Shown here: positions 1-20,902 of the stretch, piece by piece | Numbering within the stretch: position 1 is the stretch's first letter | Layout: each line of letters starts with the position of its first letter | Assembly: GCF_054482525.1 (NCBI RefSeq) | Contig: NZ_CM137006.1 | Direction: 5' to 3' (one strand) | Length of the DNA stretch: 64,000 bases | Notes under the pieces: generated by a model | The model's database searches: none | Told to the model about the DNA's origin: nothing | What the model saw: the letters and a program-made list of their open reading frames with translations, nothing else | Program-made: the position numbers and the translations under genes

Positions 1-2655
<2,655 letters not shown>

Positions 2656-2659
<4 letters not shown>

Positions 2660-3600
2660 GCGTGGGCTCCTTCATGACGACGAATGCGCGGGTCCAGCGC
2701 GGCGTTGAGCAAATCAACAATCAAATTACAGACCACAAAAACCACCACCATCATCAGCGTAAAGCACTGGATCACCGGATAGTCACGGTTAAAAATCGCC
2801 GATACCGCATAGCGCCCGACGCCCGGCCAGGCAAAGATGTTTTCGATAATCATCGTCCCGCCAATCAGTTCGCCAATGTGCATCCCCACGGCGGTGATCA
2901 TCGGCAGCGAGGCATTGCGCAGAATATGACGACGTTCGGTCTGTTTGTCGTTCAGGCCGCGTAGCCGCGCCCAGGTGACGTGACGCTGACCGGCGACGTC
3001 CAGCATACTGGCGCGCAGTAGCCGTGCATTAATCGCCAGCGACATAAAGGCAATGGAAACCGCAGGCAAAATGATGTGCTGCCAGCCGCCGTAGCCCATC
3101 GCGGGTAGCCATTGCAGATACACCGAAAACGCCATCACCAGTAAAAACGCCAGCCAGAAGTTGGGCATCGACACGCCGAGAAACGCGATGAAACGTACGG
3201 CGAAATCCGGCAGACGATCGCGATGGCGCGCCGCCCAGATACCGAGCGGTACGGAAGTGAGCAGAATTAACACCAGCGCGGCACCTGCAAGTTCCAGCGT
3301 GGCGGGCAGGAAGTTCAGCATATCGTCCAGCACCGGGCGTTGGCTGGCGAATGAGATACCAAAGTCAAGATGCAGCGCCTTCCACAACCAGGTGCCGTAC
3401 TGGACATACAGCGGCTGATCCAGCCCCAGCATGGTGCGGGTAGAAGCCAGCATCTCCGGCGTCGGCGGCAGGTTAGACAGACGCAGATAATCGAGCGCCG
3501 GGTCGCCGGTGCCGAGGCGCAGCATCAGAAAAATGATCACCGAGGCGGCGAGCACCATCGGGATCAGCAGCAGAAAGCGGCGTAATACGTAACGCAACAT
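2656..3600 (-). CDS. nikB: Nickel ABC transporter permease NikB
   Basis: 314 aa hydrophobic permease ORF; overlaps nikC by 4 nt. Confidence 0.9.
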
Positions 3601-5174
3601 TAAGGTTTCACCGGTTTAATCTGTTCGAACGGAATTTCGGTGGCGATCGGCGCGTAGGGGATGTTACCCAGCTCCGGTTTTGATACCACCATCATTGAGA
3701 TGTAACTGATAGGCAGATAAACCGCCTCGTCATGCAGACGGGTCAGAATGTCGCGATACAGCGCCTGACGTTGCGTTTCGTCATGGGTCGCCAGCACTTC
3801 GCCGATCTCTTTATCAATCAGCGGCTTGTCGGCTAATCCTTGCTGTGCCTGGAAATCAGCGTGCGACGGTACGCGCATTGAACTCAGGAAGGCGTGTGGA
3901 TCGTATGGCGCGCCCCAGGTGCGATGGAAAATCATGCCAAAACGACCGTCGCGCTGACGAGCATAGATACTGCTCTCTTCTTCGCCAACCAGTGAGACAT
4001 CTGCGCCAATCTGGCGCATATCAGCCTGAATGATTTCCGCCATCGATTTGCTTAACGCATCGGTGCCGATGAACGACAGTTCAATGCGCAGCGGCTGACC
4101 ATTTTTCTCGCGGATGTCTTTGCCCGCAGGAAGCGTCCAACCGGCTTTTTCCAGCAACGCTTTCGCTTTCTGCGGATCGTACTGGCGCGGTTTCAGGCCG
4201 AGGTTGGCGTAGGGCACAGAAGGGGCAAACAGGGTGTCGGCGACCTGCTGGGTGCCATACAACGCGTTATCAATCAGCGATTTTTTGTTTACCGCGTAAT
4301 TAAGAGCTTCACGTACGGCCAGCTCGTTGGTGGGGGCTTTGGCGGTATTGAGTGCCAGCATCACGGTTTCGATCGGCTGTGACAGTTGGGTGTGGTAAGC
4401 CGGGTTCTGGCTAAAGCGGGCGAAGGTATCGAGCGGTAATAACCCTTCATTTCCGTACAGCAGGTCGATATCGCCAGTTTCAAACGCCACCGCGCGGGTA
4501 GTCGGGTCCGGGATCACGTTAAAGGTGATCTTTTTAATCGCTGGCTTTTCGCCCCAGTAGTTTTCGTTACGGACGAAGACATCGTACTGATTCAGTTTCG
4601 ATTCCTGTAAAACCCACGGCCCGGTGCCAATCGGCGCTTTAATTCCGTTCATGGTTTCGTGGTTTTTAAACTGCGAGGGGGCGATAAAACGGAAAGGACG
4701 GGGCAGGGCCAGTTCTTGCAGGAAAGGATAGTAGGCGCTTTTCAGGGTGATTTGCAGCTCGTTTTTACTGAGTGCTTTGACATCAACAATCTGGTTTGCC
4801 AGCTCCAGCCAGGCGTGACGTTGACGGTTATCGAGCACTGCGCGGAAGTTTTCTGCCGCCGCCTCTGCATCAAACGGTTCGCCGTTGGAGAATTTCACGT
4901 CATCACGCAGGGTGAAGGTCCAGGTTTTACCATCTTCTGAATGAGTCCAGCTTTTTGCCAGCCACGGGATCACCGAACCGTCTGCCTGATATTTCACCAA
5001 TGGTTCATAAACCATGCTCTGGGCGAACATCTGGTTAGGCGTGTAAAGGTGCGGGTTTAGTGGCCCGACATTCACCGGCCAGGCGGTGGTGATTTCATCT
5101 GGTGCAGCGGCATGGACGATAAAAGACGCACAAGCCAGCAGCGCAAATAGAGTGCGGCGGAGTGTGGAGAGCAT
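3600..5174 (-). CDS. nikA: Periplasmic nickel-binding protein NikA
   Basis: 524 aa ORF with N-terminal signal peptide ([25 protein letters not shown]), family 5 solute-binding protein; first gene of the operon. Confidence 0.9.
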
Positions 5175-5211
5175 GGTAACCCCAATGGATTAAAATAGAT
5201 GGCGGAAATAA

Positions 5212-5239
5212 GTATGACGATTTTAAGTATTCGTCATAC
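5212..5239 (-). promoter_or_regulatory. NikR operator in the nikA promoter (GTATGA-N16-TCATAC)
   Basis: Perfect inverted repeat GTATGA cgattttaagtattcg TCATAC about 40 bp upstream of the nikA start, matching the remembered NikR operator architecture. Confidence 0.7.
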
Positions 5240-5284
5240 TGATAACCTGTTCTGGATCAAAAGATGGACAGTCGGGTGGGCGGA

Positions 5285-5872
5285 TCAGTTAACTGAATCG
5301 ATCCATTGCACACTGTCGGCGGAGAGCGTAAAGGGGGTGGGAGTGCAGATCGCCAGGCTTAAATTATCAAGCTGGCAATGGCTGACCGACAGTGATGACT
5401 GATAGGTGCTGTCTACGCTGACGATTTGCCAGGCGCTGCCGCCACGTTGTTTAACGATGGCTTCTTTGCGTGTCCAGATGCGCCAGAACATTTCCAGTTG
5501 CTGATCAGGATGCACGGCGTCCATCTCAGCGTGTTCCCCGAGGCTGAACACCGCGTTCGCCAGCCAGCGCCAGTTGGCGCGCGGGCGAATCACTTCGATA
5601 TCGCAGCCGACTTCGCCTTCATCGCTCAACAGCAGGGCGATATCGTCACCGCTATGGCTTAAGTTGAACCATAGCGGCGTTTCCGGCGCGAATGCAGGTT
5701 TGCCTTGTTCGCCATAGATGATCTCCGGTAGCGGGGAAAGCGTGTGCGAAAGCAATGCACGCCCCGCCAGCCAGCGTTCGCGTCGTGGACCTTGCGGTGC
5801 TTGATCGCGTAAAGCCGGTGGCAGTGGAGCTGCGCTTAAGGTCGAAACTTTCCCCAGAACTATCCGATACAT
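5285..5872 (-). CDS. acpT: 4'-phosphopantetheinyl transferase AcpT (holo-ACP synthase family)
   Basis: ORF track gives 5285..5992; the likely true start is the internal ATG at 5872-5870 (MYRIVLGKVSTLSAAPLPP..., 195 aa). That start lies 1 nt after the stop of the upstream ketosynthase gene. Confidence 0.8.
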   Translation of the reverse strand: MYRIVLGKVSTLSAAPLPPALRDQAPQGPRRERWLAGRALLSHTLSPLPEIIYGEQGKPAFAPETPLWFNLSHSGDDIALLLSDEGEVGCDIEVIRPRANWRWLANAVFSLGEHAEMDAVHPDQQLEMFWRIWTRKEAIVKQRGGSAWQIVSVDSTYQSSLSVSHCQLDNLSLAICTPTPFTLSADSVQWIDSVN

Positions 5873-5873
5873 A

Positions 5874-7103
5874 TCAGGGCCAACGTTTAATGATGATGGA
5901 TGTATTAATGCCACCAAAGGCAAAGTTGTTACTCTGCAAAAACTCACAATCAACTTTGCGGGCTTCATGCATGATGTAATCCAGCGCGCCACAATTCGGG
6001 TCTGGTTTATTCAGGTTTAGCGTAGGCGCAAACCAACCTTCGCGCATCATTTGCAGACTCATCCAGGCTTCGAGCGCGCCACAGGCACCAAGCGTATGAC
6101 CAAAATAACTTTTCAGCGAGGAGAGCGGCACATTATCACCGTAAATGGTTGCTGTCGCCAGACTTTCTGCCATATCACCGCGATCGGTCGCCGTACCATG
6201 CGCTGAAATATAGCCGATATCTTGTGCGCTTAACCCGGCGATTTTCAGCGATTGCTCCATACAATACTGCATGGTTTCGCGCTGCGGCTGGGTAATATGT
6301 GCCGCGTCGCAGTTAGTCGCAAAGCCGACGATTTCACCGTAAATGGTCGCGCCGCGCGCTTTGGCGTGCTCCAGTTCTTCGAGAATGAGCGTACCTGCGC
6401 CTTCACCAATCACCAGCCCGTCGCGGTTTTCATCGAACGGTGAAGGTGTGGTTTTCGGCGCATCATTGTGCTGGCTGGTGGCGAAAAGCGTATCAAATAC
6501 CGCTGCTTCTGAAGGGCATAACTCTTCGGCACCACCAGCAACCATCACCGTTTGATAACCGTGGCGAATGGCTTCCCACGCATAACCGATTGCCTGGCTG
6601 CCGGAGGTACAGGCGCTGGAGGTTGGAATCACCCGCCCGCGCAGGCCGAAAAAGAGGCCAGTATTAACGGCGGTGGTGTGTGGCATCATCTGCACATAGG
6701 TGGTGCCAGTGATGTTGTTCGTGTGCTTTTCCGTCAGCATGGTGGCGAACTCGCTCACCGGGCCGGTACTGCCGGTCGATGAACCGTACGCAATGCCCGT
6801 TTCGCCGCTGGTTAATATCGGATCGCCAATCAACCCTGCCTGCTCTAATGCCAGCTCTGTCGCACGGGTCGACATTTGCGACACGCGGCCCATCGCACGG
6901 ATACGCTTGCGGGTGTAATGCTCCGGCAGCGTAAAATCATCAACAGGCGCGCCAAGCAGGGTGTGCAGACCATCGTAGACCTGCCACTCCGGCATTTTGC
7001 GCACTGCATTCTCATACGCCAGCAGACGCGCGGAAACGTCCTGCCAGTTTTCACCAAAGGCAGTCACGCCGCCCATTCCTGTAATCACTACGCGACGTGT
7101 CAT
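5874..7103 (-). CDS. Beta-ketoacyl-ACP synthase (KS) with Cys-His-His active site; by gene order apeR-like
   Basis: 409 aa ORF with active-site Cys in SSACTSG and His motifs SAHGTATDRGD and FGHTLGACG; FabB/FabF fold. Confidence 0.85.
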   Translation of the reverse strand: MTRRVVITGMGGVTAFGENWQDVSARLLAYENAVRKMPEWQVYDGLHTLLGAPVDDFTLPEHYTRKRIRAMGRVSQMSTRATELALEQAGLIGDPILTSGETGIAYGSSTGSTGPVSEFATMLTEKHTNNITGTTYVQMMPHTTAVNTGLFFGLRGRVIPTSSACTSGSQAIGYAWEAIRHGYQTVMVAGGAEELCPSEAAVFDTLFATSQHNDAPKTTPSPFDENRDGLVIGEGAGTLILEELEHAKARGATIYGEIVGFATNCDAAHITQPQRETMQYCMEQSLKIAGLSAQDIGYISAHGTATDRGDMAESLATATIYGDNVPLSSLKSYFGHTLGACGALEAWMSLQMMREGWFAPTLNLNKPDPNCGALDYIMHEARKVDCEFLQSNNFAFGGINTSIIIKRWP

Positions 7104-7831
7104 AACATCCCTCCGTTGATGGAAATAACCTGGCGGGTGACGTAACCCGCAATATCAGACATTAAATAGCTGGCAAGCCCGGCAACTTCTTCCGCCTGGC
7201 CCATGCGTTTCATGGGGATCATCGACATTGCCTCTTTCAGAGCGCTCTCTTCCATTTCGATCATCCCGGTATCAATAAGCCCCGGCGCGATGCAGTTGAC
7301 GGTGATTTTGCGCTTCGCGAGTTCGATAGCCAGTGCTTTTGTTGCGCCGATAATTCCGGCTTTGGCAGCGCTGTAGTTCACCTGTCCGCGATTGCCCATC
7401 ACGCCGGAAACCGAGGACAGCGTGATGATTCGTCCACCCTGGCGTGCGCCGATCATCGGCATAATGCACGGCTGAATGACGTTGTAGAAACTGTCGAGGT
7501 TGGTGTGGATCACCGCATCCCAGTCGTCATCGCTTAAAGCCGGAAAAGCGGCATCGCGGGCGATCCCGGCGTTACTAACCACGCCGTACCAGGCACCGTG
7601 TTGCGCGATCTCGTGCTCCAGCACTTCCCGACACTGTTCGCGGTTTGCGACGTCGAAACTGAGCAAACGCCCGTTACCACCGTTAGCGACAATGGCATTC
7701 AGCGTTTCCTGAGCGCCTGCGGCGTCACGGTGATAGTGAACGCCAATGTTAAAACCGTCTGCCGCCAATTGGCAGGCGATGGCGCGACCAATGCCTTTGC
7801 TGGCACCAGTAACCAGAACTGAACGACTCAT
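7100..7831 (-). CDS. 3-oxoacyl-ACP reductase, FabG-like SDR (KR); apeQ-like
   Basis: 243 aa ORF with N-terminal TGASKGIGRAIA Rossmann motif and SDR catalytic region (YSAAKAG). Confidence 0.85.
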   Translation of the reverse strand: MSRSVLVTGASKGIGRAIACQLAADGFNIGVHYHRDAAGAQETLNAIVANGGNGRLLSFDVANREQCREVLEHEIAQHGAWYGVVSNAGIARDAAFPALSDDDWDAVIHTNLDSFYNVIQPCIMPMIGARQGGRIITLSSVSGVMGNRGQVNYSAAKAGIIGATKALAIELAKRKITVNCIAPGLIDTGMIEMEESALKEAMSMIPMKRMGQAEEVAGLASYLMSDIAGYVTRQVISINGGML

Positions 7832-8295
7832 CAGGACGCTCCTTGTTGAAACAGGGTGGTAAGTTCTTCCGCGGTCGGCTGGAAGGTGTTAATGCGGCCC
7901 GTTGCTTCGCCGTCGTTGATACTGCACTCAAAACTGCCGAAGCGATCGTCTTGCATCAGGAGTTTGACGGTAATGGTCAGCGTCTGGCCTGCGGGCAGAA
8001 TGCCAGCGGCGCAAAGCAATTCACGTGCGCCCAGTACCATCCCTAACTCAATACTGTTTTTGCCCTGCTGGTGGCGATGCCAGCCAGACCAGACGCCGAC
8101 GGTTTGCGCCATCAATTCAAGGGCAAACCAGCCAGGGAGATTGCCGTCCGGGTCGAGAAACGGTGCCAGTACGCCACTGGGCGAAACCGTCACGCGGCAC
8201 ACCGCGCTGTCATCGCTGACGCTCACCACGTCTTCCAGCAGTAACATGGGCGCGTCGTGGGGCAGATAAGCGCCGGGGGATAAATAGTGGCTCAC
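7831..8295 (-). CDS. Hotdog-fold dehydratase (DH); apeP-like
   Basis: 154 aa ORF, tightly coupled between the KR and KS genes; size and position fit a FabA/FabZ-like hotdog dehydratase. Confidence 0.7.
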   Translation of the reverse strand: MSHYLSPGAYLPHDAPMLLLEDVVSVSDDSAVCRVTVSPSGVLAPFLDPDGNLPGWFALELMAQTVGVWSGWHRHQQGKNSIELGMVLGARELLCAAGILPAGQTLTITVKLLMQDDRFGSFECSINDGEATGRINTFQPTAEELTTLFQQGAS

Positions 8296-9470
8296 GAAAC
8301 CCTCCCGAGCAGAATGCTGGCGTTATTGCCGCCAAAGGCGAAGGAATTGGACAGGATCACCGGACGTGCCAGCGGCTGTGGTTGTTCGATAATGCCGCAC
8401 GGTGGCAGCGTGGGATCGCGCGGCGACAGGCTGAAGTCCTGAGCGAGCAGCGGTAAATCACGCTGTAAAATCAACATGCTGATTGCCGCCTCGGTAATGC
8501 CCGCCGCGCCCAGCGTGTGTCCGGTCAAATGTTTGGTGGAACTGCAAGGTACGCGTTCGCCAAACAGGGCGTTAACCACCATCGATTCAATCTGGTCGTT
8601 GAGTTGTGTGGCGGTACCGTGCAGGTTGATATAGCCGACGTCATCTGGCGTAAGCTGCGCATCGGTCAGCGCCTGGTTAATGGCGCGGATCGCCCCTTCG
8701 CCCTGCGGATGCGGGGCCGAAATATGGTAAGCGTCGCTCGATTCACCAACGCCCAGTAACGCGATGGGCTGCGGTTCACGGGTTAATAACATCAGTCCCG
8801 CCCCTTCGCCAATGGTGATACCTGCGCGGTCACGACCAAACGGCTGACATAAGGTGGGCGAGAGCGATTCGAGGCTGTGAAAACCGTTAATCGGCATCCG
8901 GCTCAGAGTATCTGCGCCACCCACAATGGCGGCATCGACCAGCCCCGCTTCGATAAGCCTGCGCCCGCTGATCATCGCTCTGGCGCTGGAAGAGCAAGCG
9001 GTTGAAAGGGTATAAGCCGGGCCATCGAGCGCCAGCCAGTGGCTGAGAAAGCGCGACGGATCGCCAAGTTCCTGTTGCGCGTAGTGCCATGTGGTGCTCG
9101 GCTGTCCGTTGGTGCGCAGGTTAACGTGCGTGTCGCCCTCATGCAGGCCGGAGGTGCTGGTGCCAAGTACAATCGCGATGCGCTCGTGACCATATTTCGC
9201 GATAGCGTCATCAACCTGCGGCTGGATCTGCGCCAGCGCCGCCAGCAGGATCTGATTGTTGCGCGAGCGGTGCGCAGCGAATTTTTCGGGGATAAGCGGA
9301 AGCTCGCCATCCACGCCAGCCAGGACCGCCTGCGGATGCCCCTGCAACCAGCCTGCGCGCGGACGCATGCCGGGAGCGACACCGCGAGTCAGGTTGGCTG
9401 CGATCTCATCAAGGTTATTTCCCAGGGCGTTGATCATGCCGACGGCGGAAATATAAATCATATCAGTCAC
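8292..9470 (-). CDS. Beta-ketoacyl-ACP synthase (KS); apeO-like
   Basis: 392 aa ORF with TACSSSARAM (active Cys), LHGTATQLND and TGHTLGAAG His motifs. Confidence 0.85.
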   Translation of the reverse strand: MTDMIYISAVGMINALGNNLDEIAANLTRGVAPGMRPRAGWLQGHPQAVLAGVDGELPLIPEKFAAHRSRNNQILLAALAQIQPQVDDAIAKYGHERIAIVLGTSTSGLHEGDTHVNLRTNGQPSTTWHYAQQELGDPSRFLSHWLALDGPAYTLSTACSSSARAMISGRRLIEAGLVDAAIVGGADTLSRMPINGFHSLESLSPTLCQPFGRDRAGITIGEGAGLMLLTREPQPIALLGVGESSDAYHISAPHPQGEGAIRAINQALTDAQLTPDDVGYINLHGTATQLNDQIESMVVNALFGERVPCSSTKHLTGHTLGAAGITEAAISMLILQRDLPLLAQDFSLSPRDPTLPPCGIIEQPQPLARPVILSNSFAFGGNNASILLGRVS

Positions 9471-10047
9471 CTAAGTATTGAATGGTGATGTGGTATTTAA
9501 AGACATGCTGCTCAATGCTGATTGGCACGCGTTTGCCCTTGCGATTCAAATAGGTGATTTCCGTGACCAGCTTGCCGCTGGCGTTACGCAGCTCGCGTTT
9601 GTCACCGTTGTCGCGAAGTGTCCAGCCAGTGGGAAGTTGCGGCTGCCAGGCGCTAATCGGCCAGTGGCTGAGCATCACGTCAGCCAGTACCTGACTTGCG
9701 GGCGGTAACTGTGGGACGACGATCGATTGCTCGGCGCGTAGCCCTTGCGCATCGTAGGTCACCAGAAACAGGCGAATGCCGACCGACGACAGTCCGGCAA
9801 GGGTGATTTTCTGGTCGTCGGCGTTAAGCATCACTAGCAGCGACTGGGTTTTGCCGTTGAAGCTGCCGGTCAACAGTTGCTGGGAATTGACGGCGGGTGA
9901 AATCCCCGGCGCAGGCAGCGTGATGCGCGTGCCAGGTTGCAGCCACGCTTGCGGGCGGCCTTCCTGTTCTGGTTGCGAGTGGCTACAGCCGGTGAGGATA
10001 AGCGTAGCGGTCAGGGCGAACGCTCGCCAGAATGTGGGTTTGATCAT
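9463..10047 (-). CDS. Lipoprotein of unknown function, DUF3261-like; apeN-like
   Basis: 194 aa ORF with signal peptide and lipobox LTGC; overlaps neighbouring genes at both ends. Confidence 0.7.
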   Translation of the reverse strand: MIKPTFWRAFALTATLILTGCSHSQPEQEGRPQAWLQPGTRITLPAPGISPAVNSQQLLTGSFNGKTQSLLVMLNADDQKITLAGLSSVGIRLFLVTYDAQGLRAEQSIVVPQLPPASQVLADVMLSHWPISAWQPQLPTGWTLRDNGDKRELRNASGKLVTEITYLNRKGKRVPISIEQHVFKYHITIQYLGD

Positions 10048-12362
10048 TTTTTTGTTCTCTTTTTATCGGGCATGGCCAGCGGCGAAAGCAGGAAGGCGGT
10101 GAAAATACCGCTCACCAGCACAATGCCAAAACTGCTGATGGCCTGGGTGGCGCTGAATACCAGCATTCCCAGCGTCAGCAAGGTGGTGAGCATTGCCAGC
10201 GTGATCGCCAGTAGCGAAGTTAATGGTGTGCCGCGCGGATTACTGAAAAACAGCGTGTAGTTGATGCCGATGCCAAGCACCAGTACCAGCGCCAGCAGCG
10301 AAAAGAGATTCACCGCCTGCCCGCTCATCGCCAGCACCGCCAGACCGCAGCCCAGTGAAAGCACCGAAGGCACCAGGCTGATAAACCCTTTGCGCCAGCC
10401 GAGGCGGGCCACTGCGCCGCAGGCAATTACTGCCAGCGCCACCAGCAACAAGCCGGTTAACACATAACGGTAAAGTGCGAACAATTCATCAAAGGTGTTT
10501 TTGCGATCAACCCAGGCAATGCCACAAGGGTAATAGCTGGAGATTTCCTGTAGCGCCGCGCTATTTTTAACCCCTTCAACCGGCACCAGCACGCCGCTTG
10601 CGCCATTTTCCAGCGTCAGCCACAGCAGACGCCAGCCTTCACTGGCGGGGCTTGCCAGCCATTCATCAACCTTCACTGGCATGGCGTTAAGATCCGGGTT
10701 CACCGCCGTCAGCCCGGCATTTTGCAGTGCTTTTGTTACCGTCGGGGCAGCCGTTTTCAGCAGGTCTAAATCTTCCTCCTGCCGCGCCAGGGAGTTCAGC
10801 GGAATGGTGCGGTAGTTGCTGATAAGGCCGTCTTTTTTCGCTTTCTCCAGCGAGGTGGTAAATGTCTCCAGCCGTCCCAAGGTTTGCTGTGACGAATCGC
10901 CGTAAACCACAAACCATTTTTGATCGACGCTTTGTCCGGTCAGGGCGGTGATGGCTTTCTCCTGCGCCAGAATATGCTGCGGTAGCGCCTGTAACTGCGA
11001 GATATCGTCATCGACGCACAGCATTGACATCCCCGCCAGCGAAAACAGCGCCAGCGCGACGGGCAGACCCCGCGACAGTTTTTTATTACGCCGCCACGCT
11101 GCCAGCCAGCGCAGCATCAGCGCCATCGCTGGAACCGGACGCACCGGCAGGCCACGGCACAGCCACGGATGCCAGAACAGGACGGTCAGACAGGAGGCGC
11201 TCAACCCGACGGCGGCAAAAATCGCCATCTGGCGAATGCCGGGGAAGGGGGCGAGCATCATAATCAGATACGCCGCCACGGTGGTGAGCAGCGCCAGCAG
11301 CAGGGCATTGCGCACTTTCGCCAGGCTTTGCCACGGCGAAACGTCATTGCCGTGCACCATCCGCTCGGTGAGGTAATAGAGCGTGTAGTCAGCGGAAATG
11401 CCGATAACGCTCATGCTCATCACCAGCGTCATCAGGTGTAATTCGCCGAAAATCAACAAGGTGGCGACCGTTCCCGCCAGCGCGCCGATGCCGATGGAAA
11501 TCACACACATCAGCAACGGGCGCAAAGAGCGGAACACCGCCACAATCAGCAATATCACCCCCAGCAGCGTTGCCACGCCCAGGGTGGAGATATCCTGCTT
11601 CGCCTGTTGGCTGGCGTAATCGCTGTAAAACACCGTGCCGCGTGAGAGCAACTGAGCCTGCGGGTAACGCGTTTTCAGATCCTTTTCCAGCGTATTCAGG
11701 GTCGTGATGAGCTGGTGGGTTTGCTGCATATCAAACGACGATCCCGCCAGTTCGCCGTGCAGCAGATACCAGTAGTTGCCCTGGGGATCCTGCGTCACCA
11801 GCCAGCCGTCCATCAGCCGCAAACGCTGGCCGTTTTTCGCCATCGCCAGCTGCGAGCCACGCATTAACATCAGCGGATCGTTTTGCAGCTCCTTACCGCT
11901 TACCCCGGAGAACGCAGAATAAAGCTGGGAGAGGATCCACTGCGCCTGCGCTTCGCCGCCGTTTTGCAGGCGCGCGCGGGTGTCGGGGTCAATCAGACCG
12001 TTGCGATGCTGCCAGAAAAACGCTCCCCACGCCTGCTGGCTGGCGGCATCCATTGGCCCTTTAACGTCGCCGAGCGCAGCGGATTTTTGCAGCAGCGTCA
12101 GCCACTCCTGAGCGACCCTGGGATTAGCCTCTTTACCGGGGCTGACCAGCCACACCAGTTGGCGGTCCAGACGCTGCATAAAGCCGTCATTCAGCGCTGG
12201 GGGAATATCGCCCATCGCCTGTTTGGGTAACATAGCCAGTACGCTACTGTTCAGTCGTGATTGCGGCAACAGGATCAGCAACGCCGCCGCCATGACCAGG
12301 CAGACGATCCCCCATAACAGCGCCGGGCGTTTACTGGGCGGCAAAACGTTGGCGTTCGTCAT
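10044..12362 (-). CDS. MMPL/RND-superfamily membrane exporter; apeM-like
   Basis: 772 aa ORF with two blocks of transmembrane helices separated by soluble domains, typical of MMPL lipid exporters. Confidence 0.8.
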   Translation of the reverse strand: MTNANVLPPSKRPALLWGIVCLVMAAALLILLPQSRLNSSVLAMLPKQAMGDIPPALNDGFMQRLDRQLVWLVSPGKEANPRVAQEWLTLLQKSAALGDVKGPMDAASQQAWGAFFWQHRNGLIDPDTRARLQNGGEAQAQWILSQLYSAFSGVSGKELQNDPLMLMRGSQLAMAKNGQRLRLMDGWLVTQDPQGNYWYLLHGELAGSSFDMQQTHQLITTLNTLEKDLKTRYPQAQLLSRGTVFYSDYASQQAKQDISTLGVATLLGVILLIVAVFRSLRPLLMCVISIGIGALAGTVATLLIFGELHLMTLVMSMSVIGISADYTLYYLTERMVHGNDVSPWQSLAKVRNALLLALLTTVAAYLIMMLAPFPGIRQMAIFAAVGLSASCLTVLFWHPWLCRGLPVRPVPAMALMLRWLAAWRRNKKLSRGLPVALALFSLAGMSMLCVDDDISQLQALPQHILAQEKAITALTGQSVDQKWFVVYGDSSQQTLGRLETFTTSLEKAKKDGLISNYRTIPLNSLARQEEDLDLLKTAAPTVTKALQNAGLTAVNPDLNAMPVKVDEWLASPASEGWRLLWLTLENGASGVLVPVEGVKNSAALQEISSYYPCGIAWVDRKNTFDELFALYRYVLTGLLLVALAVIACGAVARLGWRKGFISLVPSVLSLGCGLAVLAMSGQAVNLFSLLALVLVLGIGINYTLFFSNPRGTPLTSLLAITLAMLTTLLTLGMLVFSATQAISSFGIVLVSGIFTAFLLSPLAMPDKKRTKK

Positions 12363-12936
12363 CGGTCAGTTGCGCTGGCGTCAGTTGATGTTGGGTAAGA
12401 GCGATATCGGTGCGATCGCCCTGTTTATCATTAAGCTGAATGCTCTCCAGATAGGTTTGCCCGGCGAGATCGATGGTGTTGAAAATTTTATCCAGCGGCG
12501 TGGTGGTCGGCGTCAGGCGCAGTGTCCAGCGGCCTTCGCCTTTGTCAGCAAATTCGACGCGGAAGTTTTGTTCCAGCACTTTGCGATCGGCCTGGAACAG
12601 CGCGCGCAGCAGGTGGTTAAACTGGAACATCTGCGGGTTATTTTCTGCCGTGATAATTTGCGGCGGCTGACCGTTGATCACCTGCACCATGCGTTTATCG
12701 TCCAGCAATAGTTGCATGGGGAACGGTGAGGTTTGATCCCACAACAGCCCCTGGTCGCGGGCGATCAACATCTGGCCCTGAGATCGTAGCGGCTGCGGCA
12801 GATCTTTAATCGTCCGGGTTTGATCGAAATGGGCGCGGATCACTGGCTGTTCGGTAAAGCGTTGCTGAAGATCGTCCAGGTTCAGGGCGCTCACAAACGG
12901 GCTAATCAGCAGCGCCAGCAGCGGTAAAAATTTCAT
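12331..12936 (-). CDS. LolA-like outer-membrane lipoprotein carrier protein; apeL-like
   Basis: 201 aa ORF with signal peptide (MKFLPLLALLISPFVSA); size and composition fit the LolA/LolB fold. Confidence 0.7.
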   Translation of the reverse strand: MKFLPLLALLISPFVSALNLDDLQQRFTEQPVIRAHFDQTRTIKDLPQPLRSQGQMLIARDQGLLWDQTSPFPMQLLLDDKRMVQVINGQPPQIITAENNPQMFQFNHLLRALFQADRKVLEQNFRVEFADKGEGRWTLRLTPTTTPLDKIFNTIDLAGQTYLESIQLNDKQGDRTDIALTQHQLTPAQLTDDERQRFAAQ

Positions 12937-13355
12937 GGTTTGACTCCCATGCGTTCAAACAGAATATCGGGGCTGACAAAGCACAGTTCGCGGCTTTGCT
13001 CGTCGACCGCGACCTGAATGGTGTATCCGGTGGTGGCGCGTTTTCCCGTTTCGGCATCGAAAATCTGATAGCCAATCCGCAGACGGTTTTCGAACTCTTC
13101 GATATGCGCACGCACGCGGATGCGTTGCTCAAAGGTGAGGGCGTGGCGATATTTCACCCTCGCATCGACCACTGGCCACAAATAACCGGACTCTTTCATC
13201 TGCCGATAGCCGTAATTGAACTGGTTGAGCAGCGCCTCGCGGGCCACTTCAAAGTAGCGAAAATAGTTACCGTGCCAGGCCACGCCCATCATATCGACGT
13301 CGTGAAAGGGAATGGTCAGCTCGACTTCAGCGGTAAATCGGGGATCGTTAAGCAC
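12933..13355 (-). CDS. Acyl-CoA/acyl-ACP thioesterase, 4HBT/YbgC hotdog family; apeK-like
   Basis: 140 aa ORF with the N-terminal ...ELTIPFHDVDMMGVAWHGNYFRYFE... motif typical of 4HBT-type thioesterases. Confidence 0.75.
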   Translation of the reverse strand: MLNDPRFTAEVELTIPFHDVDMMGVAWHGNYFRYFEVAREALLNQFNYGYRQMKESGYLWPVVDARVKYRHALTFEQRIRVRAHIEEFENRLRIGYQIFDAETGKRATTGYTIQVAVDEQSRELCFVSPDILFERMGVKP

Positions 13356-13358
13356 CCT

Positions 13359-15035
13359 TTACTCCTTGTCCTGGACTTCCGGCAGTTGCCAGAAATCGAA
13401 AAAATTAAACCAGTCGAGGGGGGACTGGAGCGCGTAATATTCCAGACGCGCGGCGTAATGATCGATAGCGTTTTGCAGCGCCTGCTGGCGTTCGCCACGC
13501 GGCAACAGCAGCGGGTCGGCAAAGGTTTCGCAGTGAATATGCAGCTTGCCGTGCTGGCGCAGCGCGAAAATCAGATTCACCGGGCAGCGCAAAATAGACG
13601 CAAGAATAAACGGCCCCTGCGGGAAGGGCGCAGGCTGGCCCATAAACGGACTCCAGCAGACTCGCCAGTCGCCGCCGCGTTGCGGGTTGACGGCGATGCG
13701 GTCACCGACAATCGCCACCCATTCGCCGTTATCCAGCTTCTCTTTGAGCAGGATGGCGGTTTCTGGGCCGATATCCGTCACCGGGAGCAGGTTGATGCCT
13801 GCCTGCGGGGCCATCTCCTGCATTATCTGTTTAAAGCGTTGGGCGTTTTCGCTAAACACCAGCGCGTTAATGGTTTTGTAGCCCTGAATTTTTGCCAGCG
13901 CCCGGCACACTTCCACATCGCCAAGATGCGAGGCCAGCAGCAATTTGCCGCGCGGATCGCTGACGTTAAGTGCCGCTTCTGCGCCTGGTGCAAACAGCAC
14001 ATCACGCCCGAGTTGCAGCTCGCCGCGCCAGCTGGCGATTTTGTCGAGCATGGCGTTGCCGAAACGTAGAAAGTGCTGATAGCTGTTGATTTTTGCTGCC
14101 AGTGGTTGTTGTTGGCGCACACGGGCGAGCCAGGCTTGCGACGCTTTACGCGCACGAGCAGCGGTGAGCCAGTAGACGCCCACCACCGGGTAAAGCAGCG
14201 CGGTAAACGCAGTTCTTCCCAGCAGACGCCAGACCAGCAGCATCAGGCGCATTCCCCATAATCCTTTCACTTCGCTCTGCCGCGCCCAGTGGCTGGAAGA
14301 GCTGCGCATCAGCAGTGAAGGAATACGCGGCAACATGCCGAAAAACAGACGTGTGTGCATGAGCGAGATGCGGACGTTATCTTTCAGGGCATCAAAATGC
14401 GAAAGCCCGTCCAGTGGATAGGTGACGCGGGTCGGCACGAAATAGCTGGTGTTTCCCTGCCAGTAGAGGCGCACCATCACTTCAGTGTCGAAATCCATCC
14501 GCTTGCCGATGGTGGCGTATTTTGCCAGTTGCAGCGTTGGCGCAACCGGATAAACGCGAAAGCCGCACATGCTGTCTTTCAGTTGCAGGGAGAGCGTTTC
14601 GATCCATACCCAGACGTGGGTGACCCAGCGCCCGTACAGCCGTGAGCGGGGGATGGAGTCATCGTAAATCGGCTGGCCGGAGATCAGCGCCGCAGGCTGC
14701 TGTTCAGCGAGTGCCAGCAGTTTAGGGATGTCTTCAATCGCGTGCTGACCGTCAGCATCCACCTGTACCGCATGGCTGAAGCCCGCGTCTGCCGCCGCCT
14801 GTAAGCCGCGCATTACCGCCGCGCCTTTGCCTGCGTTTTCTGCCAGGCGAATTAAGGTCACGCCAGGCTGTTCGGCAACCAGATTATCCAGTTGCTGTTG
14901 CGTGGCGGCATCGCTGCCGTCATCCACCACAATACAGGGCAGATTAAATGGCTTAAGACGCGCCAGCACGCCCGGCATCATCGCACCGTGGTTGTAGCAG
15001 GGGATCAACACACAGGGAGAAAAGTTTACCGACAT
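13359..15035 (-). CDS. Two-domain protein: family 2 glycosyltransferase (N-terminal) fused to a lipid-A-type acyltransferase domain (C-terminal); apeJ-like
   Basis: 558 aa ORF; N-terminus CVLIPCYNHG...VVDDGSDA...VDADGQH is the GT2 signature (DxD-type); C-terminal half resembles LpxL/HtrB-like acyltransferases. Confidence 0.7.
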   Translation of the reverse strand: MSVNFSPCVLIPCYNHGAMMPGVLARLKPFNLPCIVVDDGSDAATQQQLDNLVAEQPGVTLIRLAENAGKGAAVMRGLQAAADAGFSHAVQVDADGQHAIEDIPKLLALAEQQPAALISGQPIYDDSIPRSRLYGRWVTHVWVWIETLSLQLKDSMCGFRVYPVAPTLQLAKYATIGKRMDFDTEVMVRLYWQGNTSYFVPTRVTYPLDGLSHFDALKDNVRISLMHTRLFFGMLPRIPSLLMRSSSSHWARQSEVKGLWGMRLMLLVWRLLGRTAFTALLYPVVGVYWLTAARARKASQAWLARVRQQQPLAAKINSYQHFLRFGNAMLDKIASWRGELQLGRDVLFAPGAEAALNVSDPRGKLLLASHLGDVEVCRALAKIQGYKTINALVFSENAQRFKQIMQEMAPQAGINLLPVTDIGPETAILLKEKLDNGEWVAIVGDRIAVNPQRGGDWRVCWSPFMGQPAPFPQGPFILASILRCPVNLIFALRQHGKLHIHCETFADPLLLPRGERQQALQNAIDHYAARLEYYALQSPLDWFNFFDFWQLPEVQDKE

Positions 15036-15409
15036 AGGCGGATCTTCCCGCTACTGGCGGTGTGGCGGGCGTCACCGTCGTGACGCTGATAGCTAAAGCT
15101 CAGAATCTGGCGTTCTTCCTGCCAGTTAAGCGTGAGCGTGACGCGGTTTTCCGGCAGCAACGGGGACTGGAATTTGATGTTCTGAATAGAGTGAAAACGC
15201 CAGCCAGGCGCGAGCAGGGCAAGCGCGTAGCTCATCGCCCAGTCGATTTGTGCAACTCCTGGAAGTAACGGCTGCACGGCAAAATGACCGCGAAACCAGA
15301 ACAGATCCGCCCTGAGATGCAGAACAATTTCAAGGTGATTCGCTTGTGCCTGATGGCGCTCGATTTCATGGGGCTTCATGAAATAACTCCTGTAATTGCG
15401 CATAGACAC
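15026..15409 (-). CDS. Hotdog-fold dehydratase, FabA/FabZ-like (DH); apeI-like
   Basis: 127 aa ORF (true start possibly the internal Met at about 15379); small hotdog protein overlapping both neighbours. Confidence 0.6.
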   Translation of the reverse strand: MSMRNYRSYFMKPHEIERHQAQANHLEIVLHLRADLFWFRGHFAVQPLLPGVAQIDWAMSYALALLAPGWRFHSIQNIKFQSPLLPENRVTLTLNWQEERQILSFSYQRHDGDARHTASSGKIRLCR

Positions 15410-16766
15410 GCTTGTTCATACTGTTTACTGGCATTTCATCAATAACGCGCCAGTAACGCGGAATAGCAACTGGCTCCAGGGTCGGGCGCAGTAATCGCCG
15501 CCAGGTCATTTCCTGGCTATGCCCGCCGCCGTTCTGCCATTGCAGATGAGCTTCGTCATCCAGCACCAGCAAAACGCCGATGCTCTGACGCCCGCCGCGC
15601 GTAACGGGAACTGCCGCCGCCTCGCGAATGCCGTCCAGCGCCAGCAGACGTTGTTCTACTTCCTGGAGTGAAATACGTTTTTCTTCAATCTTAACGATGC
15701 GCCCACGACGCCCCATCAGATGGAACTGACCGTCCTGGCTAAACTGCAAGAGATCGTCGAGCAACAGGCCGTTATCTTCCGCTATCAGCGGTGAAAAGAG
15801 GCGAAATGCTTCACCTTCGACCTGGAAGTGCATACCTGGAAAGGGCCGCCAGCGGCGTTGCTCTTGTTCGCGGTAACGCCAGGCAATGACGCCGGTTTCC
15901 GTGCTGCCGAAGATTTCATCAGGCCAGACGCGCAGCCAGCTCTCGGTATATTGTACGTCCTGCCACGGCAGCTCACCGCCAGCAGAGAGAAGCACCTGAA
16001 CAGGCGGCGGGGATAGCTGAGCATCCAGACGCTTCAAAAATGCCGGGCTGCTGATGAAGATATAGCGATGCTGGTGACTCAATGCGGCAAACTGTTCGAC
16101 ATACCAGAGCATGGCGGCGTGCAGCGGTAATCCCAGCGCCATTGGCAGGAAAACGCGAAAAGTCAGGCCGTACAAATGCTGCGGCAAAACGGAACCGACG
16201 ACACGACATCCGGCAAGACGTGCGCCTAATCGTTCAGCCAGCAGTTCTGCTTCACGGTCCAGCAAATGAACAGGCTTAATTACCCGCTTTGGCTGCCCCG
16301 TAGAACCGGAGGTAAACAGCTCGATATAAGCGTCTGGCGCTATAGCGGCAAAGGTGAATGATTGTGTCGCGACTTGTGGGGAACTTGCTACCAACAGCAA
16401 TGAACCTTGCCAGTTAAGTTCGCTGTCGCTAAGTACACCATCGAACAGTTCACGTTGCTCATTAAGCTGGATGACACGGTTATGCCCCGGAAGCACCGGC
16501 GTTTTTCCGGCGTGTAGCGTGGCGAGCAGGGCAACGATAAATAGATAGCTGTTCTCAAAGCACAGCGCCCAGCGTTCACCCGGCTGTTGCTGCAAGCGGC
16601 AGATAAGTTGCGCGACATCGTGACGCAAATCGCCCAGTGTCCACGAGCTTTCGTCCAGCCACGCAATGGGCGTGTCATCAGGGCGTGGCGCAGTCAGCCA
16701 GCGTGCAAGCGGTAAGGTCTGCTTCATGAGCGATCTCTTTTTATCACCTGACGGCGCACCAGCCAT
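15366..16766 (-). CDS. AMP-dependent ligase (acyl-ACP/CoA synthetase-like adenylating enzyme); apeH-like
   Basis: 466 aa ORF with AMP-binding core motif TSGSTGQPKRV; the start may be the internal Met (MKQTLPL...) at about 16727. Confidence 0.8.
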   Translation of the reverse strand: MAGAPSGDKKRSLMKQTLPLARWLTAPRPDDTPIAWLDESSWTLGDLRHDVAQLICRLQQQPGERWALCFENSYLFIVALLATLHAGKTPVLPGHNRVIQLNEQRELFDGVLSDSELNWQGSLLLVASSPQVATQSFTFAAIAPDAYIELFTSGSTGQPKRVIKPVHLLDREAELLAERLGARLAGCRVVGSVLPQHLYGLTFRVFLPMALGLPLHAAMLWYVEQFAALSHQHRYIFISSPAFLKRLDAQLSPPPVQVLLSAGGELPWQDVQYTESWLRVWPDEIFGSTETGVIAWRYREQEQRRWRPFPGMHFQVEGEAFRLFSPLIAEDNGLLLDDLLQFSQDGQFHLMGRRGRIVKIEEKRISLQEVEQRLLALDGIREAAAVPVTRGGRQSIGVLLVLDDEAHLQWQNGGGHSQEMTWRRLLRPTLEPVAIPRYWRVIDEMPVNSMNKRVYAQLQELFHEAP

Positions 16767-17305
16767 TCACCTGCCATTAACGTTCCCATCAACAAATAAG
16801 CAATCATGCCGTTCCAGGCGGTCCATAACGACATATCGCCATAAAGCGCGGTAAAGAGGGCAATTCCGCCGTTAATGATGAAAAAGCCGCACCAGATTTG
16901 CGTGACACGGCGGGTATAGCGCACGCCCTTTTCCGGGAGGTCTGGCTCCTGCAAACGTGCCAGCCGCTCAACTATCGGCATTGTCGACCACAGCGAACCG
17001 CCAAAAACCGCCAGCATGATCGCGTTAACCACTACCGGGTAAAACAGCAGTAGCTGGTGCGTTTTCAACAGAAAGCTGGCGACACACAATGCGATGCCCA
17101 CGACAGCGACGATTTGTGTGACGGCTTGTAGCGGCCCCGCCCGGCGACGGGTCTGGCGCAGGCGCAACAAAAGCAGCAACGCTATTAGCGGCAACAACCA
17201 GTGCAGGCCGTTATGCGCCAGGCCAAACCAAATCACAAACGGCCAGGCGAGCAGCAATAATCCAGTCAGCAGCTTAATCATCGGTAGCGAGCGAATGCCC
17301 GACAT
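16724..17305 (-). CDS. Small integral membrane protein of unknown function; apeG-like
   Basis: 193 aa ORF with several hydrophobic helices; coding-dense position inside the cluster. Confidence 0.6.
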   Translation of the reverse strand: MSGIRSLPMIKLLTGLLLLAWPFVIWFGLAHNGLHWLLPLIALLLLLRLRQTRRRAGPLQAVTQIVAVVGIALCVASFLLKTHQLLLFYPVVVNAIMLAVFGGSLWSTMPIVERLARLQEPDLPEKGVRYTRRVTQIWCGFFIINGGIALFTALYGDMSLWTAWNGMIAYLLMGTLMAGEWLVRRQVIKRDRS

Positions 17306-17309
17306 CAGA

Positions 17310-17561
17310 TCAGGCTTCTTGTAGCAGGCGTTCTACAGCCTCTACGACATCCTGAACTGTGCGCACTGCTTTAAACTCTTCCGGCTTGATTTTCTTACCG
17401 GTTTTCTTTTGCAGGTGCACAATCATGTCAACGGCGTCGATGCTGTCCAGTTCCAGATCTTCGTACAGGCGCGCTTCAGGTTTGATGTCCTGCGGATCGA
17501 TTTCAAACAGCTTAACCAGCAGGGCTGAGACTTCCTGATAGACGGTTTGTTGTTCTGTCAT
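17310..17561 (-). CDS. Acyl carrier protein; apeF-like
   Basis: 83 aa acidic ORF with the phosphopantetheine attachment motif LELDSIDAVDMI. Confidence 0.85.
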   Translation of the reverse strand: MTEQQTVYQEVSALLVKLFEIDPQDIKPEARLYEDLELDSIDAVDMIVHLQKKTGKKIKPEEFKAVRTVQDVVEAVERLLQEA

Positions 17562-17572
17562 GATGGCTTTCC

Positions 17573-17830
17573 TCAGGCACGTTGCGCAGCAATGAAAGAG
17601 GCCAGAGTGGCGACGGAGAAAAAGTGCTGACGCATCTCTTCACTTTCCGCAGAAAGTACAACGCCATATTGATTTTTCACTGCCAGCCCCAGTTCCAGGG
17701 CATCGATGGAATCCAGTCCTAAACCGTCGCCGAACAGCGGCGCATCGGTCTCGATATCATCAGGAGTCAACTCGTCCAGATTGAGGGTACTGATGATGAG
17801 GTTTTTAATTTCCAGATAAAGCGCTTGCAT
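17573..17830 (-). CDS. Acyl carrier protein; apeE-like
   Basis: 85 aa ORF with LGLDSIDALELG attachment motif; tandem with the second ACP gene. Confidence 0.85.
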   Translation of the reverse strand: MQALYLEIKNLIISTLNLDELTPDDIETDAPLFGDGLGLDSIDALELGLAVKNQYGVVLSAESEEMRQHFFSVATLASFIAAQRA

Positions 17831-18644
17831 TATTTATTCCTGAGAGAGGTAAACAACCTTGTTGTAATTGAAGCAAAAGATGCCGGTTTAACTGCCTTGC
17901 TGCCAGCGCCGGTTCTTGTGAAGTTGCATCGTAAAATTTATTGATTTCAACCCGACCATGGACTTCAACCGTAAAAAACGGCCGGTCAGGTGGAACGTCA
18001 TACCATTTACTTTGTTTATCCAGCAGATGCTCGCTACAGCCGATCGTCACGATGCGTAAATCGCTGGCACAGCGCACGGCAATATTCGCCGCCCCGCGCT
18101 GCAGCGTCATTTTTTCACCGGGCTTCGTTCGCGTGCCTTCGGGGAAAATCAGGATAGTGTCACCCTGTGCCAGTCGCTGTTGGCAGCGGGGTAACAGGGT
18201 TTCAGCTTCGCTGTTGATTAAATAATCTGCCGCCCGCACGACGCCGCCAAGAAAAGGATTTTTTAACAGCGCGCTTTTCACCAGGCAGTCAGTTTCTGGC
18301 ATGACTGACGCCAGCAGCACGTAATCGATCAGCGTGGGATGATTGGCTACGACGAGGCAACCGCGTTCCTGACGTAAAATTTCAGCGCCATCAATACGAT
18401 AATCCAGCACGCCAAGCCCTTTCGCGACAGTTAAAAACAGGCGAAAACTGGCGGCAATGCTGCGACGCGCCAAACGACGGCGGCGGGAAGTATCCCACAC
18501 CAAAACTAACAATATGTTAAACCACACGACAGAAAGCAGCAGGCCGCCGAGACCAAACAGGGCAAAACATAACCCGGTCATGACCAGTCGCCAGGTCCAC
18601 TCCAGACGTGACATCAGCTTACTCATCTGCGGCTCCAGCGCCAT
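17805..18644 (-). CDS. Lysophospholipid (PlsC-type) acyltransferase; apeD-like
   Basis: 279 aa ORF with N-terminal transmembrane segment and H(X)4D-type motif NHPTLID; likely start at the Met giving an ATGA overlap with the upstream stop near 18626. Confidence 0.75.
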   Translation of the reverse strand: MALEPQMSKLMSRLEWTWRLVMTGLCFALFGLGGLLLSVVWFNILLVLVWDTSRRRRLARRSIAASFRLFLTVAKGLGVLDYRIDGAEILRQERGCLVVANHPTLIDYVLLASVMPETDCLVKSALLKNPFLGGVVRAADYLINSEAETLLPRCQQRLAQGDTILIFPEGTRTKPGEKMTLQRGAANIAVRCASDLRIVTIGCSEHLLDKQSKWYDVPPDRPFFTVEVHGRVEINKFYDATSQEPALAARQLNRHLLLQLQQGCLPLSGINNASALSGN

Positions 18645-19345
18645 TGCACGCGCTCGCCAGGCAGTGAAAATGCGTCTGCATTTTGTAAATAGTGCTGTAA
18701 AAACAACATGCTTTGCGGCAGTGATGTTTCATTGCCCGCAATGGCTGACTGCGTTTCACATTGCCAGTCATCGCCAGCTTCAATCACCAGCGCGACGGCG
18801 TACGGCCAGGTCGGCATTTCTGATGGCAGTTGTGGGTGATAAAACTCAGGCAGAAAGCCATCAAAATCGACCATCAGCACGCGCTGGTATCCCGCTTGTA
18901 ACAGGCTAAGCACTTCACACAAACCTTGCTGGAAAGTGTCGCGACCAGCAGAAAGCGATGACGAAACGATCGGCTGTTTGGCCGCAATGGTCAGGTTACC
19001 CACGGAAGAGTTGTGTACGGAGAGCGCGAAGTCGGTCGGAGAAAGCGCCTGTTCAGTTGCCAGTGCATGAACAATGCGGTAATTGCGCTCCAGTTCGCCA
19101 TGACGACTGGTATACAAAACGGCGTCTGGCTGATGGCGGCGTAGCATTGCCAGACCGCATTCAACAGCCAGTTTGCTGCCTGAACTAAGGCGGCGGGCGG
19201 TCATCATTGGCAGTTCACTTAATTTTGCCAACGGCGCGGCAGGGTCAATCGCCCACGGCTGGCGCGACCATGCTTGCCATTGCTGCGCTTCGCTAAGTCC
19301 AGGCGCCAGTGCCTGCCAGTCGGTAATATTTAATGTAAATTTCAT
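18623..19345 (-). CDS. Beta-ketoacyl synthase N-terminal-domain protein lacking the catalytic Cys (chain-length-factor-like); apeC-like
   Basis: ORF track gives 18623..19369 (248 aa); probable start MKFTLNITDW at about 19345. About half the size of a full KS with no active-site Cys motif recognisable. Confidence 0.6.
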   Translation of the reverse strand: MKFTLNITDWQALAPGLSEAQQWQAWSRQPWAIDPAAPLAKLSELPMMTARRLSSGSKLAVECGLAMLRRHQPDAVLYTSRHGELERNYRIVHALATEQALSPTDFALSVHNSSVGNLTIAAKQPIVSSSLSAGRDTFQQGLCEVLSLLQAGYQRVLMVDFDGFLPEFYHPQLPSEMPTWPYAVALVIEAGDDWQCETQSAIAGNETSLPQSMLFLQHYLQNADAFSLPGERVQWRWSRR

Positions 19346-19385
19346 CAACGCGCGCCCGCGGTAAACCAAAATTATTAAGTGACGA

Positions 19386-20453: not shown

Positions 20454-20512
20454 AACCTGTTAAGAGGGAATTAAATTATTATCGGACCGCAGCGGCCCGA
20501 CTTTAGGAAGAA

Positions 20513-20902
20513 TTATAAATCTGCGCCCGCTGACAAATTCAGTTGAATATCTTTGTCGAGATTGCGGACCCAGCGATTGTAGTTTTTATGAATTTGTCCG
20601 CCTGACGCTTGTAGGTTCTGGCTATTTTCATAATTGATATCGTAGCTGGATGCCGTGTAGTTAATGCGAATTTCGGCTGAATGATCGCGTGACTGTTGAC
20701 GTGCTTTAATTACGCCTTGTCCGGCTTCGGACATAATCCATTTGCGTTCAACGCCAGCTTTCAGAATCGCTTTTTTCACTTGTTCCTGGGTATGACCAGC
20801 GCTGACGGTTGAGTGAACCTGATCAATTGGCGCAGTACGCGCGCAACCCGCTAAAGCACCCACAACAGCAATAGCCGCAAACCATTTCATGTAATGTCTC
20901 AT
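20513..20902 (-). CDS. Small lipoprotein of unknown function; first gene of the cluster
   Basis: 129 aa ORF with signal peptide and lipobox LAGC; its start codon lies inside the IS1 target duplication. True start may be the second Met (MKWFAA...). Confidence 0.6.
   Translation of the reverse strand: MRHYMKWFAAIAVVGALAGCARTAPIDQVHSTVSAGHTQEQVKKAILKAGVERKWIMSEAGQGVIKARQQSRDHSAEIRINYTASSYDINYENSQNLQASGGQIHKNYNRWVRNLDKDIQLNLSAGADL

Follow-up and report, generated by a model that had tools for sequence, protein, structure and literature searches.

The acpT-nikA junction carries the known NikR operator and FNR-dependent nikA promoter, and transcription arriving from upstream is probably ended there by Rho

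Does transcription of acpT, and of the genes that precede it, run on into the nickel-import operon nikABCDE-nikR? The question is raised by a short gap in the stretch of DNA analysed here (64,000 nt from contig NZ_CM137006.1 of NCBI RefSeq assembly GCF_054482525.1, hereafter the window), in which acpT and nikA follow one another on the minus strand. Since the acpT stop codon TGA occupies 5287-5285 and the nikA ATG 5174-5172, positions 5175-5284 are exactly the whole 110-nt space between them. Read along the sense strand from the acpT stop, this space holds a pyrimidine tract, an FNR site, the NikR operator with its -10 element and the leader, up to the nikA ATG (Table 1).

Table 1. Features in and around the acpT-nikA gap, in window coordinates
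Feature	Position	Strand	Basis
nikR, first 84 codons (window 253-2); gene runs off the window start	1..253	-	NCBIfam
nikB, nikC, nikD, nikE	259..3600	-	RefSeq annotation of the PCN033 locus, 100% identical
nikA, periplasmic nickel-binding protein, first gene of nikABCDE-nikR	3600..5174	-	NCBIfam
nikA 5' UTR, 39 nt, Shine-Dalgarno GGGG at 5183-5180	5175..5213	-	sequence; 5' boundary is the inferred start
Equivalent of K-12 Rho coordinate 3613642 (+)	5199..5199	-	Adams et al. 2021 and coordinate mapping
Inferred nikA transcription start, an A, 7 nt past the -10	5213..5213	-	FNR spacing and sigma70 peak
NikR operator, dyad GTATGA-N16-TCATAC	5212..5239	.	exact match, conservation, review
Putative -10 hexamer TAAAAT, within the operator spacer	5220..5225	-	sequence, orthologues, K-12 sigma70 peak
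FNR site TTGAT-CCAG-AACAG, 8/10 consensus positions, centre 5253.5	5247..5260	-	sequence, K-12 ChIP-seq, conservation
Pyrimidine-rich, G-poor tract UCCGCCCACCCGACUGUCCAUCU, candidate Rho loading (rut) region	5262..5284	-	composition
acpT, 4'-phosphopantetheinyl transferase, 195 aa	5285..5872	-	NCBIfam, PCN033 annotation
Last beta-ketoacyl-ACP synthase gene before acpT	5874..7103	-	ORF list, annotation, NCBIfam
Aryl-polyene-type cluster, roughly 15 kb	5874-20900 (PCN033 locus, L001:4511-19527)	-	gene content

The flanking genes were identified by NCBIfam equivalog models. The acpT product matches the AcpT equivalog NF007676 over its full length (residues 1-195; 394.6 bits, cut-off 174), NikA matches TIGR02294 (838.6 bits, cut-off 393), and the truncated nikR at the window start still matches the NikR equivalog (141.6 bits, cut-off 83). 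In the corresponding locus of E. coli PCN033, nikR, which encodes the cognate repressor of the operator, is complete and lies at the end of the nik operon. A mechanical list of open reading frames starts acpT at a GTG, as a 235-aa frame (5285-5992, minus strand) that reaches about 120 nt into the upstream ketosynthase gene; this start at 5992 was rejected, as the family model fits the product from the ATG at 5872 over residues 1-195 and RefSeq annotates that ATG. A 67-aa frame on the plus strand (5199-5402) was likewise dismissed as a mechanical ORF antisense to the 3' end of acpT.

Over 301 bp spanning the junction, the window and E. coli PCN033 agree at 100% of positions, and the two genes are annotated as neighbours, acpT then nikA, in 5425 of 5426 complete E. 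coli genomes. In MG1655, where acpT occupies 3612969-3613556 and nikA begins at 3613667 (window position p corresponding to 3613667 + (5174 - p)), the gap is identical to that of the window at 107 of 110 bases, and none of the three SNPs (window 5268, 5261 and 5244) falls in the operator, the -10 element or the FNR half-sites.

The dyad GTATGA-N16-TCATAC has a single exact match in the 64 kb, against 0.01 expected per window from dinucleotide-preserving shuffles, and it lies inside the 110-bp gap, where the initial annotation had placed it. On the plus strand it reads GTATGACGATTTTAAGTATTCGTCATAC; its arms can be extended to 10 bp (AGTATGACGA / TCGTCATACT, 5240-5211), and it ends 37 nt before the nikA ATG. 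When two mismatches are allowed the pattern is found once against 1.2 expected, which is not significant, so the evidence for the operator depends on the exactness of the match. A review (PMC7055735) gives a nanomolar affinity for Ni-NikR at GTATGA-N16-TCATAC in the nikABCDE promoter, and the same consensus is quoted in PMC545781. The 28-bp operator, the embedded -10, the 39-nt leader and the 37-nt spacing to the nikA ATG are all identical to those of the K-12 nikABCDE promoter, which differs by the three flank SNPs and by its upstream context, yhhT there lying 54 bp upstream of acpT. The exact consensus, the nikA and nikR family matches and the conservation at orthologous loci described below bear out the earlier assignment of the dyad to NikR: the element is the NikR operator, already known, as is the FNR-dependent nikA promoter that contains it.

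The anatomy of that promoter can be read against the K-12 data of Myers 2013, in which nikABCDE is directly activated by FNR from one site at -40.5, with an FNR ChIP-seq peak at 3611593/3611605 and a sigma70 peak at 3611651 (U00096.2 coordinates). Sigma70 occupancy there is 68.7 aerobically and 1896.9 anaerobically, and the aerobic mRNA level is 0.030 of the anaerobic level for nikA and 0.05-0.06 for nikB-E. Addition of 1977 converts the coordinates, so that the sigma70 peak becomes 3613628, which is window position 5213. With the centre of the FNR site set at -40.5 and the sigma70 peak at 5213, we infer that nikA transcription starts at 5213; the operator would then span about -26 to +2 and cover the hexamer TAAAAT (5225-5220), which probably functions as the nikA -10. 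FNR-like matches number 36 in the window against 26.4 expected, and the nikA site is not significant by sequence alone, so its assignment rests on position, ChIP data and conservation; TTGATyCAGAACA is indeed conserved in Citrobacter and Superficieibacter. A generic sigma70 scan of 4900-6200 returned 0 matches, which is uninformative for an activator-dependent promoter that lacks a -35. The arrangement resembles that of the class II FNR promoters (site near -41.5), of which narG, dmsA and pykA appear with nikABCDE in Table 1 of Myers 2013: a TTGAT-N4-type site at -40.5, no recognisable -35, anaerobic recruitment of sigma70 and, in K-12, about 33-fold anaerobic induction. The nikA site departs from the class II consensus in its degenerate distal half-site (AACAG for ATCAA), and is recognised through its position and the ChIP data.

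Matches to the NarL-type heptamer (TACYYMT) were also observed in this region. A perfect copy, TACTTAT, lies on the minus strand at 5214-5208, across the inferred +1 and overlapping the right operator half, and a second copy, TACTTAA, matching at 6 of 7 positions (5229-5223, minus strand), lies 15 bp upstream of the first; such short heptamers are common by chance. Repression of nikA by nitrate through NarL has been reported.

How far this control region depends on its upstream neighbour was judged from 80 NikA-encoding loci of other species. A dyad with at most one mismatch is present upstream of nikA in 75 of them and is exact in 53; TAnAAT occupies spacer positions 15-20 in 69 of the 75 orthologous operators, and about 20-40 nt separate the dyad from nikA in most loci. 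Only 10 of the 80 loci have an AcpT homologue in the 3 kb upstream (Escherichia, some Citrobacter and one Superficieibacter). The operator-promoter module therefore goes with nikA, not with acpT, and its conservation whatever the upstream gene indicates that nik regulation is independent of the acpT neighbour. Within Escherichia the gap is nearly invariant.

Insertions between the operator and nikA were seen in individual Escherichia strains. In Escherichia sp. MOD1-EC7003 (L007:2853-3000) an insertion of about 112 bp separates an intact NikR operator from the nikA ribosome-binding site and lengthens the 5' UTR; it belongs to a dispersed repeat that occurs at 24,043 places in all, the median E. 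coli genome having 5, and that we take to resemble an ERIC/IRU-type intergenic repeat. Escherichia sp. E1V33 (L005:2454-3000) carries an insertion of about 440 bp after the operator, made of repeated G+C-rich units CCCTCTCCC...GGGAGAGGG in which GCAGTTACAGCCACAAAAGTGCACGGACAGTCCCCTCGCCCC recurs three times. After this insertion, just before nikA, there is a degenerate second copy of the right operator half (...AATCGTCGCCATACTTATTTCG).

What could enter the gap from upstream is a matter of strain. According to the PCN033 annotation, nik is preceded by 18 co-directional genes of a fatty-acid/polyketide-type cluster, encoding a methyltransferase, a chain-length factor, two carrier proteins (ACPs), an AMP-binding (adenylating) enzyme, dehydratases, a glycosyltransferase, a thioesterase, a LolA-like protein, an MMPL transporter, ketosynthases and FabG2. 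In gene content this cluster corresponds to the aryl-polyene cluster of Johnston et al., who note that AcpT activates the carrier proteins of the aryl-polyene cluster in O157:H7; that cluster has no dedicated phosphopantetheinyl transferase, and AcpT was termed an orphan. In the strain studied here, as against that label, acpT directly abuts the last cluster gene. Its ATG begins 1 nt past the ketosynthase stop codon (TGA-T-ATG), which makes acpT the terminal cistron of the cluster gene array and, from the spacing, suggests that the ketosynthase gene and acpT may be translationally coupled. K-12 is without the cluster. Downstream of nikR the strains differ as well, PCN033 having a hicA/hicB toxin-antitoxin pair and then yhhJ (L001:25669-26300), and K-12 having rhsB (L002:11750 onward). 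Given these strain differences on both sides of the nik operon, the flanks are variable and the acpT-nikA junction itself is fixed.

The initial annotation had seen no obvious terminator hairpin after acpT, and for canonical intrinsic terminators this is correct: a permissive scan of both strands over 4900-6200, the kind of prediction that had been proposed as a check, found 0 sites against 1.2 expected by chance. As the same scan returned 20 sites in 12 kb elsewhere in the window, it is lenient, and its empty result at the junction is meaningful. Rfam gave no match at E <= 1 over 4800-5700, so that the gap is taken to hold none of the known riboswitches, leaders or sRNAs. The operator dyad itself would fold as a hairpin when transcribed: as sense RNA it forms a 10-bp stem with a 10-nt loop (dG -12.1 kcal/mol, z = -5.5 against shuffles) followed by UUAUUUCC, the best hairpin-plus-T-tail candidate in 5330-5120. 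With only 4 G-C pairs, a large loop and an interrupted U tract, it is not a canonical intrinsic terminator, and its d'Aubenton-Carafa-type score of -30 to -39 compares with +25 to +30 for the controls trpA t and lambda tR2. The score is negative even for plausible terminators elsewhere in the window and was recalibrated on the controls, so that its absolute threshold is soft; the operator hairpin nonetheless scores well below canonical terminators.

A missing hairpin terminator does not imply missing termination. For K-12, Adams et al. 2021 (Supplementary file 2) report a Rho termination region at 3613642 on the plus strand of NC_000913.3, of class 'orphan', with a Rho score of 8.94 (p 5.5e-27). 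Adjacent rows of that table (zntA internal, yhhS antisense) fit NC_000913.3, which places the coordinate within the acpT-nikA gap, at +15 relative to the inferred nikA start; the operator hairpin ends 12 nt 5' of it, and the nikA ATG follows 25 nt later. The counts, which are 3' ends in 800-nt counting windows from one treated and one untreated culture of K-12 (without the cluster) in aerobic LB, are 147 upstream and 28 downstream without treatment, and 158 and 269 with bicyclomycin. For this one pair of cultures there is hence a 5.3-fold fall across the junction in untreated K-12, which bicyclomycin abolishes. A drop in signal after acpT, which the initial annotation had itself set against read-through, is seen in these untreated counts. 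As Adams et al. 2021 point out, the coordinates of such regions lie closer to 3' ends left by processing than to the points of actual termination. The Rho-region row is the only one in the Adams 2021 tables to match the junction, their Term-seq tables containing no entry for acpT, nikA or 36135xx-36137xx, and the SMRT-Cappable-seq supplements likewise have no junction entry.

The composition of the junction is of the kind that Rho is expected to use, C-rich, G-poor sequence being associated with Rho loading sites (Adams et al. 2021, methods). The pyrimidine-rich tract begins right after the acpT stop and is part of a longer stretch, from about 5380 to 5001, in which C exceeds G. The C:G counts are 30:16 in the gap, within the top 1.5% of 110-nt windows on either strand, and 120:72 over 5380-5001, within the top 0.03% of windows of that size; overall, the C:G skew of the junction falls in the top 0.03-2.5% of same-size windows. 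On this basis we infer that the tract at 5262-5284 may serve as a rut site. Rho-dependent termination calls for roughly 80 nt or more of such untranslated RNA, a length that the 110-nt gap provides. Between the acpT stop and the FNR site, Escherichia species differ almost only by C/T exchanges, and the equivalent stretch in Citrobacter (L011, L057) is also G-poor despite an otherwise different upstream sequence; such a pattern may be due to a rut site or to a promoter-upstream contact. Like the 1078 Rho regions of Adams et al., one of which is the orthologous position in K-12 itself, the junction has untranslated C-rich, G-poor sequence past a stop codon, and in the K-12 counts the downstream signal is sensitive to bicyclomycin. 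It differs from those regions in the shortness of its gap (110 nt), which leads directly into a promoter and a ribosome-binding site.

Taken together, these observations favour a known nikA control region at which transcripts from upstream are mostly terminated by Rho, leaving the nik operon largely insulated, and we hold this reading with good confidence. The alternatives turn on what the bicyclomycin response and the operator hairpin mean. The first, that transcription of acpT and the lipid/aryl-polyene cluster continues substantially into nikABCDE and couples nickel uptake to the cluster, is suggested by the co-directional order of all genes from the cluster through nikR, by the 1-nt spacing of acpT from the synthase gene and by the lack of a canonical terminator in 4900-6200. 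It also draws on the roughly tenfold rise of downstream 3'-end counts when Rho is inhibited, a rise which indicates that polymerases arrive from upstream of the junction or at it. The same experiment, however, shows the 5.3-fold drop across the K-12 junction that bicyclomycin relieves; aerobic nikA mRNA stands at 3% of its anaerobic level, in step with FNR and sigma70 occupancy of the operon's own promoter; and the operator-promoter module is retained in 75 of 80 species, an AcpT homologue within 3 kb upstream in only 10. From the 3% figure, all input other than from the FNR promoter, read-through included, amounts to a few percent at most, and we consider substantial read-through unlikely. 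The proposal of the initial annotation that read-through into nik is possible stands, then, as far as mechanism goes: there is no intrinsic terminator, and read-through is physically possible since it appears when Rho is inhibited. As an appreciable source of nik expression it is opposed by the Rho termination at the K-12 equivalent and by the low basal level of nikA.

The bicyclomycin effect might alternatively concern transcripts begun at the nikA promoter and ended early by Rho, an attenuation in the 5' UTR or early reading frame, in place of termination of read-through from acpT. The Rho coordinate lies just 14 nt past the inferred start (+15), the early nikA coding region is likewise C-rich and G-poor, and with bicyclomycin the downstream count of 269 exceeds the upstream count of 158, so that part of the gain may stem from nikA-promoter transcripts. 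Against this, sigma70 occupancy at the nikA promoter under aerobic conditions, those of the LB cultures used, is about 4% of the anaerobic value, which means that few transcripts start there, and the polymerases behind the 147-158 reads of the upstream counting window must end somewhere. As the whole explanation, attenuation of this kind seems quite improbable.

A further possibility is that DNA-bound proteins and the transcribed dyad take part in termination. At the lacI-lacZYA junction the upstream gene has no terminator of its own, and read-through from it is limited by repressor bound at the operator; the acpT-nikA junction is alike in that a co-directional upstream gene lacking an intrinsic terminator runs into a repressor-operated promoter. 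By analogy, it is conceivable that NikR or FNR acts as a roadblock to elongating polymerase at the junction. The fuller version, in which the NikR dyad hairpin in acpT-derived RNA of cluster-positive strains would pause polymerase for Rho or fix the mature 3' end of the cluster mRNA, with DNA-bound NikR and FNR as roadblocks, strikes us as very doubtful; if it were true, nickel, oxygen and Rho would all control how far transcription leaks from the lipid cluster into nickel import.

Weakest is the notion that the transcribed operator palindrome is by itself a weak intrinsic terminator or a 3'-end-protecting hairpin of acpT mRNA, so that one DNA element would be both protein operator and RNA terminator: it has in its favour the fold and T-tail described above and a Rho-region coordinate 12 nt 3' of the hairpin, in a dataset whose coordinates lie nearer to processed 3' ends, yet it is made highly implausible by its score and weak stem, by the bicyclomycin sensitivity of termination at the junction, by the lack of a recorded Term-seq 3' end there (Adams 2021) and by the fact that any dyad operator trivially folds in this way.

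Returning to Rho-dependent insulation of a known control region, its operation could be pictured as follows. Under anaerobiosis FNR bound at -40.5 would recruit RNA polymerase by class II activation. When nickel is sufficient, Ni-NikR on the dyad would exclude polymerase, as the putative -10 lies inside the dyad spacer, and nickel import would be switched off. Transcripts from acpT, and potentially from the whole aryl-polyene-type cluster, would meet no canonical intrinsic terminator; past the acpT stop they would leave translation and expose the C-rich, G-poor untranslated stretch, and Rho would terminate most of them around the nikA start. The nik operon would as a result be largely insulated from upstream transcription. 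In this scheme the anatomy of the gap, the gene identities and the conservation are drawn from the sequences compared here, and NikR binding, FNR and sigma70 occupancy, oxygen regulation and bicyclomycin-sensitive termination from published K-12 data; the exact start and the rut site are placed by the arguments given above, and the Rho result would carry over from K-12 to the present strain.

With an operator identical to that of K-12, the finding matters little beyond correct annotation, and a published dataset already flags Rho-dependent termination at the acpT-nikA junction. Were read-through substantial in cluster-positive pathogens, nickel import would be linked to the expression of envelope lipids, and nothing found here suggests that it is. 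For the Enterobacterales, the operator with its embedded -10 appears as a portable module that accompanies nikA regardless of the upstream gene. For strains that keep the cluster, in which acpT is the terminal cistron, the junction is the end point for about 15 kb of co-directional genes, which, if co-transcribed, would have to end there.
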